From assembly GCF_056746865.1 (NCBI RefSeq), contig NZ_CM163382.1: DNA of 64,000 nucleotides, one strand, 5' to 3'. Numbering within the stretch: the stretch's first letter is position 1; every line of letters starts with the position of its first letter. Shown here piece by piece: positions 36,001 through 42,000 of the stretch. The position numbers were made by a program.

Positions 36001-39000
36001 CGACGTTGTTGGTCCACGGGCCGGACTGGTTAGCGTAGATACCGGTAAATAGTCCGGCGCGTGCAGGCGTACAAACCGGTGAACAGGTGTAGGCGGAATT
36101 AAAGCGAATACCTTCCGCCGCCAGACTATCAATATTTTGCGTATTCAGCGGTTTACCGCTATAGCAACCGACCATATTGGTGGCCTGGGTATCGGTCATG
36201 ATGAACAGAAAATTGGGGCGTTTCATAGGCTATCCTTCGCGTCGGGAGTAAAGGTTACGGCTGGGTCGTGACGATGCCGCCAGCTGTCAAAAATCAGGTA
36301 GACAATCACTACGGCGGCAATGAAATAACTGATCATCGCTAACCAGCGCGTACCGTAGCCGCCGAATTCAGCCAGCCCGGCATAGACGCCAATCATCGCG
36401 AACAGGATGCCAATTGACGCGATCTTGACGTTTCTCCACGGTTTCATGTCCACCGCAAACGCATCTTTGAAGGTGAACGGCGTGGCGCGCGGTTTGATAA
36501 AACCGATCACCAGCATCACGACCACGTTGATGCAGAACGTACAGGCCAGCACATAGAGGAAATGGAAGTCGAACTTCACCAGATAGTTGATGGTGATGTA
36601 GCTGATTATGCCAATCCCCATCGCCACTTTTGCCGCCAGCGCCGGGATGCGCGGGAAGAAAAAGCCCATAATGATGATGGTAACCAGCGGCACGTTGTGA
36701 ATGCCGTTGAGCTGTTTCATCCAGCTATACAGCCCCTGCGGCGCGTTGGCGATCCACGGCGCGACCAGCACCGAAACGATAGCGATAAAGAAACCAAATT
36801 TGCGCCCGACGGTGACCAGCTGCTGCGGCTCGGCATTCTGGTTAATGATGCGACGGTAAATACCCATACTGAATAACGTACTGGCGCTATTCAGAAAGCC
36901 GTTGAAGGTACTGATCACCGCACCAAATAACACCGCGCCGAAGAAACCCACCATTGGCACTGGCAGAACGTTATTGACCAGCGTCGGGTAGGCCATGTCG
37001 GCTTTCGGTAAATCCTGATACAGATGAAACGCAATCAACCCTGGCAGCACCAGTACCAGCGGGTCGAGCATTTTCAGCACCGCCGTTAACAGCGCCCCCT
37101 TTTGCCCTTCCGCCAGGCTTTTTGACGCCAGCGTGCGTTGCACGATGCCCTGATTTGTACACCAGTAAAAGGTGTTCACCAGAATCAAACCGGTAAATGC
37201 CGCGCCAATCGGCAAGGGATCGGTCGGGCCACCGATTGAGTTTAATTTCTCGGCGTGAACGGTGGTGAGTTGCTCAATGCCCTGCATAAAGCTGCCCTTG
37301 CCCATCGCGATCAGGCCAAATACCGGCACCATCAACCCGCCGATAACCAGCCCAATACCGTTGATGGAGTCCGCCACTGCCATTGCGCGCAGTCCGCCGA
37401 TCACCGCATACAAAATTCCCGCCAGACCAAGCAAAATTACCAGTAGCCAGATAGCCGCACCGTGAGAAATCTGTAGCGATTCCCCGACGTGAAACAGGCT
37501 GTTGAGCGCCAACGCGCCGGAGTAGAGAACAATCGGCAGAAAGCAGACGCCGGTGGCAATGAGGAAGCAGAAGTCGATGATAATACGCGTCGTTTTATCA
37601 TAACGTTCCTCCAGAAAATCGGGGATGGTGGCAATGCCGCGCTTCAGATAGCGCGGTAAAAAGATTAGCGCGAGGAAGATCAGCGTCACCGCTGAAGTCA
37701 CTTCCCAGCCCATCACCGACATGCCGCTTTTGTAGGCCTGCCCGGAAAGGCCGACCAGTTGTTCCGTGGAAAGGTTGGTTAGCATTAACGAAGCGGCAAT
37801 AACCGGCGCTTTTAGTGAACGTCCGGCAAGAAAATAGCCTTGTTGCGATCCGGTATCTGTTTTGCGGACCTTCCACCAGGTGATCACCGCCACCAGCAGC
37901 GTAAAACCGACAAAACTCAAGATTTGTAACGAATTCATCTCATAGCCCTTATTTATGTTTATGTCCCGGACGCATGAATATAGGGAGAGGTAAAATGCGT
38001 CGGGTCAGGCAGTCAGATTCTTAAAATACAAACATCTTATCCCTGAACGGATTGTTTTCTGTTAAGTTCAGGTTGTGAGCATAATTCGCCGAAGGGATAT
38101 TAAAATGAATGGAAAATTGCAAAGTTCGGATGTAAAAAACGAAACTCCGTACAATATTCCCTTATTGATTAACGAAAATGTGATCTCCAGCGGAATTTCT
38201 CTGATCTCGCTCTGGCATACCTACGCCGACGAGCATTACCGGGTGATCTGGCCGCGGGACAAGAAGAAACCGCTTATCGCCAACTCATGGGTTGCGGTGT
38301 ATACCGTACAAGGATGTGGGAAAATTATTTTAAAGAATGGTGAACAAATAACACTGCATGGCAACTGTATTATATTTTTAAAGCCAATGGATATTCACTC
38401 TTATCACTGTGAAGGTTTAGTCTGGGAACAGTACTGGATGGAATTTACCCCCACCAGTATGATGGATATTCCCGTTGGTCAGCAAAGCGTTATTTATAAT
38501 GGCGAAGTTTATAATCAGGAACTCACCGAAGTTGCTGAATTAATTACTTCACCAGAAGCAATAAAAAATAATCTGGCAGTCGCTTTTCTGACGAAAATTA
38601 TTTATCAGTGGATTTGTCTTATGTACTCAGACGGTAAAAAAGATCCACAACGGCGGCAAATTGAAAAACTAATTGCCACTTTACATGCCAGTCTGCAACA
38701 ACGCTGGAGCGTAGCTGATATGGCTGCCACGATCCCCTGTAGCGAAGCCTGGTTGCGTCGTCTGTTTTTACGCTATACCGGCAAGACGCCGAAAGAATAT
38801 TACCTCAATGCACGTCTGGATCTGGCGCTATCGCTATTAAAGCAACAAGGGAACTCGGTTGGCGAAGTCGCTGATACGCTCAACTTCTTCGACTCCTTTC
38901 ATTTCAGCAAAGCCTTTAAACATAAATTTGGTTATGCGCCGTCAGCTGTGCTGAAGAATACGGACCAGCACCCAACGGATGCCAGTCCACACAATTAACG

Positions 39001-42000
39001 TAACTCTGGCCAGTACGCTTTGTTGGCCTCCAGCAACTCATCCAGAATAGCTTTGGCGACCGCGGCGCTCGGTACCGTTTTCGACAACGTAATCGCCTGC
39101 CACAGGTGCTGATATGAACGCTGCTCCCAGGCGTCCACGACCAGTTTTTCCACCGCCACTTGCTGACTCATTAACCCTTTCTGAAACTGCGGGATATCGC
39201 CGACCACCAGTGGTTCTGGTCCGTTGTGCCCGACCAGACACGGGATCTCGACCATCGCTTCATCATCAAAGTTATGGATTGCCCCGTTGTTAGGCACAAT
39301 CAGCAACATCCGCTCCTGAGTGTTGAAGGCAATTGCCGCCGCCAGATCGACGATATATGACGCATGTTCGTCAATTTCCAGCTTGCCCGCCGCTGAATTT
39401 TCTGCCGCCGTAATGGCGCGGCAAGCATCGAAAACCTGTTTCTCGCGATGTTCCATCACCTCATTCGCGCGGGTATGTTCAGGGTTGGAATGCTGAACGA
39501 CATAATCCGGGAAGAGATAATATTTCAGATAGGTGTTTGGTAATGTATCCGGGTCCAGTGCCTGGACATCCCGCGCTTTTGCATAGGTGTCGTTCCAGCT
39601 CGCTTCAGTATGTGTATCTTGCTGCGGTGGAACATAACCGTGCTTAGAGACATATTGCCGCAGCTGGGGCATCAGGTCGTTGCCCTGCAAATCTTCAATT
39701 GATGTCCACCAGCCAAAGTGGTTCAGGCCGTAGTAGCGCACGCGCATCTGTTTGCGATCTTGCAGCCCAACAATTTGCGCCATCCGGCTTTCAATACCGA
39801 TTGGCATGTCACAGATGTTGAGGATTTTCGCATTCGGGCGCAGACGACGCGTGGCTTCTGCGACAATAGCTGCCGGGTTGGAGTAGTTGAGCATCCAGGC
39901 ATTTGGTGAATATTTTTCCATATAATCCACCAGTTCCAGGACGCCGCCAATGGAACGCATGCCGTACGCTATTCCGCCGGGTCCGCAAGTTTCCTGACCA
40001 ACAACGCCGTGGCGCAGCGGGATTTTTTCATCCAGTTCGCGCATCGGGTATTTGCCGACGCGGATGTGCGCCATGACAAAATCAACGTCGCTGAATGCCA
40101 CTTCAGGATCGGTGGTGTAACTAAACGCAATGTCCGGCGCTTTTTCTTTTAGGATGACTTTACAGGCTTCGGCAATCACTTCCTGCCGCGCGCCATCGTT
40201 ATCATAAAATTTCAGTGCACGAAGCGGGAAACGGTCCTGATTCGCCAGGAGCATCAACACGATGCCTGGCGTAAAGGTGCTTCCACCGCCTGCGACAACC
40301 ACTGAGAATTTGGTCATTATACTGCCTCCGTAATGGCAACATTTTCTGCTGATTGATGAGAATTAATTAAGCTATCGAGCTGTTCACGCAGCTGGGATAC
40401 ATGCAGACCAATGATCACCTGAATGGCATCGCCACTACGGAAGACGCCGTGCGCTCCCAGCTTTTTAAAGACTTCGTCATCCAGCGTTTGTGACATGTCA
40501 TGCAGTGCAATCCGTAGACGCGTCGCGCAATTGTTGATGCTGGAGATATTGCCGACCCCGCCCAGGGCTTGCAGGATACCGGCAGCCTGATCCAGCTCTT
40601 TTTTTGGCTCTGCCGCGGTGGTTTGGCCTCGCGAGGCTTTGTATTCGGCTTTTGAGTAGAGTTTCACTTCCGCATCTTCACGTCCCGGCGTGCACATGTT
40701 GAATTGCAGAATCAGGGTGCGGAAAACCACGAAGTACAGCAGGGTAAAGCACAACCCAATGGCGATTTGGGTCAGCATCATATCCGCGTGGTTGCTGAAC
40801 ATCGGGATCCAGTTTTGCGGTAAAACCTGGTCAATCAAACCACCGCCCATGTTGCCCACCACACCAAAGAGATACATTACGGTCGACATTGAGGCCGCCA
40901 GCACGGCGTGTACCGCAAACAGCAACGGTGAAATGAACAGGAAGGTAAATTCCAGCGGTTCGGTAATTCCCACCAGCATGGCGGTTAAGGTTGCGGGGAT
41001 CAGCAAGCCCGCCACTTTTACCCGATTTTCCGGTGCGGCAGTGAAGTACATCGCTAAAGAAATGCCCACGGCACCAAAGATTTTTGAGTTACCGTGCAGG
41101 GCAAAACCGCCTTCCGGGAACAACGATTTCAGCGGCTCGGCGCTCAAACTGAACTCTTGCAGATGCTGCGCCCAGTACATCTGAATGCCGCCTTCAACAG
41201 CTGCCGGACCAAAGATAAACGGTCCGTAGATGAAGTGGTGTAAACCGGTTGGGATCAGAATACGTTCGAGGAAGGTGTAAACCCACACCCCAAGGGCACC
41301 CGCCGAACGCAGGAACGCTTGCAGAGATTCAATCCCCATTTGTACTTTTGGCCAGCCGAGCAACGTCAGCCAGGCGCAGGGGATCATCACCAGGAAGGCG
41401 ATAATCACCACATAAGATGTCCCCTGGAAAATGCCGAGAAACACCGGCAGTTTTTTATCGAACAGACGGTTATGCAACGCCGTCACAATGCCGGAAATGA
41501 TAATTGCGCCGATAATGCTGGTATCGAGGGTTTTAATTCCCGCCATCATTGTCAGCCCGCTACCTGCCACCGCGTCCTGAGTGAAATCGACGCCGAAGTA
41601 GCTTCCCCAGGTCATTCCCATCGCGTTGATGAAATAGTTCCAGGTCAGGAAACTCACCATCACCGCCAGACAAGCACGCCCCTGCGCTTGCTTCGCAAGG
41701 CCAATGGGTAAACCGACAGCAAAAATCAGCGGCATATTACGGAATACCGTCCAACCGCCCTCTTCAATAATATGTACGATTTGCGCGAATAAACTGTTCG
41801 GATCGGTCAGTGATTCCCCGACAAACATCGGGTTTTGCAGCAAGATGGCAAGACCCACCACAATCCCGGCGAAGGGAAACAGCAGCACTGGCGTGAACAT
41901 CGCGCCGCCAAAGCGTTGAATTTGACTGAGCATTTCCACATCCTCTTTTCTCAATTCTGTAAGTAGGAAGCCTGATTGGTTATGCGGCAGGCCTGGAGCG

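Follow-up and report, generated by a model that had tools for sequence, protein, structure and literature searches.

An intact glv alpha-glucoside phosphotransferase operon in Escherichia coli and the lesions that distinguish its K-12 counterpart

Background

The Klebsiella pneumoniae alpha-glucoside genes aglA and aglB have homologues in Escherichia coli K-12 that are held to be cryptic or truncated (PMC5309279), and the question that their locus, glv, raises is whether the species as a whole has lost this pathway or whether an undamaged form of it is still carried by other strains. Here we analyse the glv operon in a stretch of 64,000 nt from contig NZ_CM163382.1 (RefSeq assembly GCF_056746865.1), called the window throughout, by which we mean the whole stretch; an initial annotation of this DNA had proposed that the operon is intact. 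It comprises two genes on the minus strand, glvCB, coding for a permease of the phosphotransferase system (PTS), and glvG, coding for a hydrolase of the GH4 family. The locus very probably represents the ancestral, undamaged form of glv in E. coli, in which yidP diverges from glvCB-glvG in a module orthologous to the AglA/AglB pathway of Klebsiella. Whether this module also works in its hosts is a separate matter, on which our conclusions are much more tentative.

Gene calls and integrity of the operon

The two genes of the operon were assigned as follows:

38995..40317, minus strand: glvG (aglB orthologue), an uninterrupted open reading frame (ORF) of 440 aa with an ATG start and a GGAGG Shine-Dalgarno sequence
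40317..41933, minus strand: glvCB (aglA orthologue), an intact 538-aa fused EIIC-EIIB alpha-glucoside PTS permease

The frame of glvG encodes both GH4 domains, identified by Pfam as PF02056 (residues 6-184, E 1.6e-66) and PF11975 (residues 195-415, E 2.6e-56), which bears out the full-length 440-aa GH4 protein of the initial annotation. The permease was described there as a single EIICB fusion with the NCATRLR phosphorylation motif, and such it is, but the length of 537 aa and the end at 41930 given for it fall one codon short: translation starts at the ATG at 41933, which has AGAGGA just 5' of it, and yields 538 aa. Positions 38000-43000 of the window are 100% identical to E. coli strain 2017C-4173W12, where the coding sequence called by the Prokaryotic Genome Annotation Pipeline (PGAP), 40317..41933, matches the coordinates chosen here for glvCB exactly. 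A mechanical ORF of 625 aa, reaching 42194, was not taken as glvCB, since the match to the TIGR02005 profile begins at residue 2 of the 538-aa protein; it is also ruled out by the Klebsiella orthologue, which starts at the ATG corresponding to 41933, the one with the Shine-Dalgarno sequence. The two genes overlap by a single base in TAATG, the TAA stop of glvCB lying on the ATG of glvG.

In strain 2017C-4173W12 PGAP lists both genes as non-pseudo, as WP_000160106.1 ('6-phospho-alpha-glucosidase') and WP_000952127.1 ('PTS sugar transporter subunit IIB'), and both are also non-pseudo in O157:H7. The finding of an intact operon is thus correct but already known, in that both genes are already labelled in public annotation.

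Two peculiarities of the databases concern these entries. PGAP calls the full-length 538-aa EIICB 'PTS sugar transporter subunit IIB', but uses 'alpha-glucoside-specific PTS transporter subunit IIBC' for its orthologues in Klebsiella, Citrobacter and Raoultella. The label 'subunit IIB' apparently stems from NCBIfam NF007255, an equivalog of 161 positions that corresponds to the GlvB fragment of K-12 (residues 378-538) and scores above its cutoff on this protein (372 vs 321 bits); it is a naming artefact derived from the K-12 pseudogene. Besides, GlvG and EIICB fall into one and the same 90%-identity cluster, in which 440-aa GH4 proteins are mixed with 538-aa PTS proteins from E. coli and Klebsiella, presumably because read-through or fused calls span the 1-bp overlap; this is a database quirk and not biology.

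Lesions in K-12

Positions 38900-42300 of the window were aligned with K-12 strain MC1061, a direct sequence comparison in which chance is not at issue. The K-12 locus shows about 98.4% DNA identity to the window, with 36 substitutions and one gap of 508 columns. Two of the differences are disabling, and the remaining coding changes are nearly all synonymous. The affected positions in the window are:

40827..40829, minus strand: permease codon 369 (CAG, Gln), the K-12 amber site, with C to T on the coding strand at 40829
39217..39724, minus strand: glvG segment of 508 bp, the loss of which shifts the frame in K-12 and in about 48% of E. coli genomes

The initial annotation had described glvG of K-12 as a pseudogene and glvC and glvB as separate reading frames, and had called for a pairwise alignment with the K-12 genes. 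That alignment places both lesions to the base and agrees with this description, the K-12 genes being not equally intact. The change of CAG to TAG at codon 369 leaves GlvC of 368 aa and GlvB of 161 aa, the latter starting from Met378, and is flagged 'internal stop' by PGAP; the 508-bp deletion interrupts glvG, flagged 'frameshifted'. An 8-bp direct repeat, AGTGGTTC, lies at both borders of the deletion and points to a microhomology-mediated origin.

At UAG codons, the amber suppressors in common laboratory use (supE44/glnV44) place Gln, the residue whose codon, CAG, became TAG in K-12. In DH5alpha or C600 such suppressors could therefore restore some full-length EIICB of wild-type sequence, with glvG still broken.

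Allele states among complete genomes

The states of the locus were counted in 5,426 complete RefSeq E. coli genomes. For the alleles of codon 369 we used 55-mers that have the codon at their centre and in which every 28-mer seed includes it. The counts were:

Any match to the region: 5,418 genomes
At least 80% of the 5-kb region: 4,256 genomes
Flanks only, with glvG, glvCB and yidP missing: about 1,160 genomes (21%)
508-bp glvG segment present: 1,652 of 5,426 genomes (30%)
K-12-type glvG deletion, by subtraction: about 2,600 genomes (48%)
CAG at codon 369: 3,921 genomes
TAG at codon 369: 348 genomes

The intact state is not special to the window strain, but is a common allele state found in about 30% of E. 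coli, where the figure of 1,652 reflects the presence of the 508-bp segment only and is an upper bound for truly intact operons. The full segment is kept in O157:H7 and O55:H7, among others. That the intactness might be an assembly or sequencing artefact of the window is scarcely conceivable, given that the full segment occurs in 1,652 independent complete genomes and that the exact GlvG and EIICB proteins are each found on at least 1,000 contigs.

The amber allele has a quite different distribution from that of the deletion. All 348 carriers of TAG are 100% identical to the K-12 55-mer, and 25 of the 25 sampled are K-12 or its laboratory derivatives (MG1655, BW2952, RR1, NEB Turbo), which indicates that the split of the permease into glvC and glvB is peculiar to the K-12 lineage. 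In the genomes that lack the whole module, the sequence corresponding to about 38966..42895 of the window is replaced by about 49 bp. Absence of glv has been encountered before: glvC is among the functions missing in phylogroup B2 (Touchon et al. 2009, PMC2617782).

Selection on the intact genes was assessed by comparison of the window with O157:H7 strain Z570. In glvCB there are 24 synonymous and no nonsynonymous differences, and the two proteins share one WP_ entry; in glvG there are 14 synonymous and four nonsynonymous differences, with a ratio of nonsynonymous to synonymous divergence (dN/dS) of about 0.08. The low ratios, from about 0 to 0.08, imply that intact copies of both genes evolve under purifying selection.

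Products of the operon

GlvG is identical at 391 of 439 positions (89%), in a colinear alignment with no gaps, to the protein of PDB entry 6DUX, whose sequence was traced by exact look-up to the entry labelled AGLB_KLEPN by UniRef, the 6-phospho-alpha-glucosidase of K. pneumoniae. Among proteins of known structure, GlvA of Bacillus subtilis (1U8X) matched GlvG at 752 bits, and 6-phospho-beta-glucosidase structures were far more distant, at about 210-212 bits vs 912 for the 6-phospho-alpha-glucosidase. The NAD-binding motif GGGSTFTP is found at residues 10-17, and Cys169, Asp170, His200 and Tyr263 are all present (positions corrected for offset); we take these residues to be the counterparts of Cys171, Asp172, His202 and Tyr265 of GlvA, the Cys and His presumably acting as Mn2+ ligands and the Asp and Tyr as catalytic residues. 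GlvG is accordingly described here as a predicted NAD+/Mn2+-dependent GH4 6-phospho-alpha-glucosidase of the AglB/GlvA/MalH clade.

The permease matches TIGR02005, the alpha-glucoside-specific profile, over positions 1-524 of 524 with a score of 959.2 bits (cutoff 607.3), and it is 81% identical to the alpha-glucoside-specific IIBC protein of K. pneumoniae. The PTS_EIIC domain (PF02378, residues 10-346) and the PTS_EIIB domain (PF00367, residues 453-482) lie on one chain, with the motif GITEP at residue 322 and NNCATRLR at residues 467-474, which contains the phosphorylatable Cys469. An EIIA domain was not found in the permease by Pfam or TIGR profile search, and we presume for this reason that it depends on Crr. 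By family assignment, from which its transport specificity is also predicted, the protein is an alpha-glucoside-specific PTS EIICB of the AglA/GlvC type.

In an older annotation GlvC is an arbutin-specific permease (PMC2617782, Table 5), and the initial annotation likewise listed arbutin among the sugars to be tried in growth or fermentation tests. We consider arbutin and other beta-glucosides very improbable substrates of the system, for the beta-glucoside and arbutin profile models touch the permease through its IIB domain only, at 40-45 bits, far below their cutoffs and in contrast to the 959 bits of TIGR02005, and the partner enzyme has the close kinship with a 6-phospho-alpha-glucosidase, and the distance from 6-phospho-beta-glucosidases, described above. 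Arbutin is a beta-glucoside and an unlikely substrate; the family assignment points instead to alpha-glucosides such as sucrose isomers, isomaltose, maltitol and methyl-alpha-glucoside.

Regulators

Further genes flank the operon:

42229..42945, plus strand: yidP, 238-aa GntR/HutC-type regulator with a UTRA effector domain, divergent from glvCB
38105..38998, plus strand: yidL, AraC-family regulator, convergent with glvG
34733-37938, divergent from yidL: yidK (571-aa sodium:solute symporter) and yidJ (497-aa sulfatase-like protein)

The initial annotation had linked the operon to the AraC-type regulator YidL. Its gene does adjoin glvG, the two 3' ends overlapping by 4 bp at their stop codons (38995-38998), and no terminator was found between these convergent genes; however, synteny and co-deletion make yidP the likely regulator of the module. 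The GH4 orthologue (440 aa) of Enterobacter hormaechei, Citrobacter rodentium and Erwinia tasmaniensis in every case follows an EIICB of 535-540 aa that diverges from a GntR/UTRA gene, and the Enterobacter regulator is 78% identical to YidP. The latter consists of a GntR winged helix-turn-helix domain (PF00392, residues 3-64) and a UTRA domain (PF07702, residues 87-224), and the whole-module deletion takes its gene along with glvCB and glvG. yidL survives that deletion minus its last codons, as a 288-aa YidL vs 297 aa. An AraC gene stands beside the module in Citrobacter only, accompanied by yidK/yidJ homologues, and neither the Enterobacter nor the Erwinia locus has one; since the three genes travel together in Citrobacter, YidL is more plausibly a regulator of yidK/yidJ. 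On this evidence YidP is probably a repressor of the glvCB-glvG operon, and YidL probably belongs with yidK/yidJ and not with glv.

Natural yidP mutants were also encountered. In strain AW1.7 glvCB and glvG are intact, and yidP carries a frameshifting deletion of 79 bp (window 42408-42486; AW1.7 locus 4430-5067); the match patterns of 23AR0998 and XH993 suggest the same deletion. There is microhomology at its junction, where 28-mer seeds occur in undeleted genomes too. Strains with yidP frameshifts are natural candidates for derepressed expression.

Control region

The sequence between yidP and glvCB contains these elements:

41934..42228: divergent control region of yidP and glvCB, 295 bp
42047..42062, minus strand: CRP-like site CATGA-N6-TCACG, an element CATGA-N6-TCAC(G/A) kept in four genera
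42001..42006, minus strand: -10-like hexamer TATCCT, TATGCT in Enterobacter and Erwinia, in a conserved block

A scan of 38800-42400 for the sigma-70 consensus gave 0 matches at 9/12 or better, and a CRP-dependent promoter was proposed for this reason from conservation between genera, by alignment of the promoter-proximal 150 nt of E. coli, Enterobacter hormaechei, Citrobacter rodentium and Erwinia tasmaniensis. Judged from the position of the -10-like hexamer, the CRP-like site lies near -61, in class I geometry, and candidate operator palindromes, e.g. GTAGATCTCTAC at 42077-42088, occur just upstream. We infer a predicted CRP-dependent class I promoter for glvCB.

According to a review (PMC6590174), glvB is one of the genes that carry a 'potential SOS box'. 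The sole CTG-N10-CAG in 38900-42300 is found at 40089-40108, inside glvG, and agrees with the consensus at 10 of 20 positions; we rejected it as unconvincing.

Proposed pathway

From what was read directly (intact frames, lesions, allele frequencies, orthology, motifs, selection and synteny) we infer the substrates, the dependence on Crr, the roles of YidP and CRP and the activity in vivo of the following pathway. By orthology, EIICB would import an alpha-linked glucoside, for example isomaltose, maltitol, methyl-alpha-glucoside or one of the sucrose isomers, palatinose and turanose among them, and would phosphorylate it at O-6 via Cys469, with the phosphoryl group supplied by the general PTS chain, presumably through EIIA-Glc (Crr). 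GlvG would then split the 6-phospho-alpha-glucoside into glucose-6-phosphate and the aglycone. Expression would probably be repressed by YidP and activated by cyclic AMP-CRP at the conserved class-I-like site. K-12 has lost the pathway through two independent lesions, the K-12-specific amber in the permease and the widespread 508-bp deletion in glvG, and about 21% of genomes have lost the module as a whole. The plausibility of such a pathway is illustrated by E. coli expressing aglA and aglB of K. pneumoniae, which grows on isomaltose (PMC5309279).

Nothing in the sequence speaks against function, and the operon may be functional in the window strain. We tentatively entertain the broader possibility that about 30% of E. 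coli, O157:H7 and O55:H7 among them, possess in the intact module a working pathway, kept by selection, for isomaltose, maltitol or sucrose isomers. Several observations weigh against a working operon, to which the outcome of the sigma-70 scan must be added. Within the library searched, no study testing the natural glv function of E. coli was found. One study with the Vitek system scored every O157:H7 and non-O157 isolate (100%) as palatinose-negative (PMC9631374), and the O157:H7 genome examined by us carries an intact operon despite such palatinose-negative isolates. Furthermore, about 2,250 non-K-12 genomes (by subtraction) have the glvG deletion and are expected to retain an intact permease, as checked in two of them, strains KSC64 and M3, where it is an intact, non-pseudo coding sequence; the pairing of permease and hydrolase is therefore not strictly maintained. 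The retention of a lone permease may mean that the deletion is recent, that the operon is silent, or that the permease has another role.

Many glvG-deleted genomes also keep yidP. A lone permease would be expected to be useless or even harmful, via accumulation of sugar phosphates.

The discrepancy between the palatinose-negative O157:H7 isolates of the Vitek study and the intact operon in an O157:H7 genome makes a conditionally silent operon the main rival explanation. According to it, the operon, for all its intact frames, is silent ('cryptic') like bgl, asc and chb, with neither expression under ordinary conditions nor an alpha-glucoside phenotype, and becomes active only after a mutation, such as loss of yidP, or in response to an unknown inducer. 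The natural yidP frameshift alleles beside an intact glvCB-glvG, the repeated decay across the species by three independent lesion types and the failure of the scan to reveal a strong sigma-70 promoter are all in line with silence. Against it stand the strong purifying selection to which intact copies of the two genes are subject and the conservation of the CRP-like and -10-like elements in genera that carry the orthologous module. In classical identification tables E. coli is scored negative for fermentation of alpha-methyl-glucoside. The Vitek test, being short and uninduced, is weak evidence of absence, and we regard silence as a possible but unlikely account of the intact alleles.

Should the working pathway prove to be real, the polymorphism of intact, glvG-deleted and wholly deleted states would serve as a marker of niche adaptation, and the approximately 2,250 non-K-12 genomes with the permease only (two checked) might use it for something else. 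A potential alpha-glucoside pathway, which up to 30% of strains may have, is missing from models of metabolism based on K-12, and the native E. coli alleles could serve in the industrial use of isomaltose and panose (PMC5309279) instead of Bacillus or Klebsiella genes. The result itself has little importance beyond bookkeeping: K-12 is unrepresentative at the glv locus, and an intact alpha-glucoside module is likely to be the ancestral enterobacterial state.

Comparison with known systems

The closest known system is AglA/AglB of K. pneumoniae, for which biochemical and genetic characterisation is attributed to Thompson et al. 2001 and Pikis et al. 2006 in the citing source (PMC5309279). Both systems have the order EIICB then GH4, with 89% identity between the GH4 enzymes and 81% between the EIICB proteins, and both lack an EIIA domain; the lengths are also close, 440 aa for either GH4 protein and 538 aa for the E. 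coli vs 540 aa for the Klebsiella EIICB. Unlike the characterised Klebsiella pair, the E. coli module is known from sequence and is polymorphic in the species, being intact, deprived of glvG or wholly absent.

The maltose PTS of B. subtilis, GlvA (MalA)/GlvC (MalP), has the same combination of a GH4 NAD+/Mn2+ phospho-alpha-glucosidase with an alpha-glucoside permease, but it is more distant in sequence than the Klebsiella system. GlvR, which regulates it, belongs to the RpiR family and is not a GntR/UTRA protein. When expressed in E. coli, GlvA/GlvC of B. subtilis allow the use of isomaltose and panose (PMC5309279).

Within E. coli, glv resembles bgl, asc and chb in consisting of a PTS permease, a phospho-glycosidase and a local regulator, in its variability among strains and in being possibly silent in laboratory tests. 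These operons, however, belong to other PTS and glycosidase families and have other anomeric specificity, and the silencing of glv is only putative. The most direct comparison is with glvC/glvB/glvG of K-12 (b3683-b3681), described as cryptic in a report known to us through its citation (Reizer 1994, cited in PMC5309279): the locus is the same, with the same neighbours yidL, yidP and yidE, and the window differs in carrying neither the TAG at codon 369 nor the 508-bp deletion in glvG.

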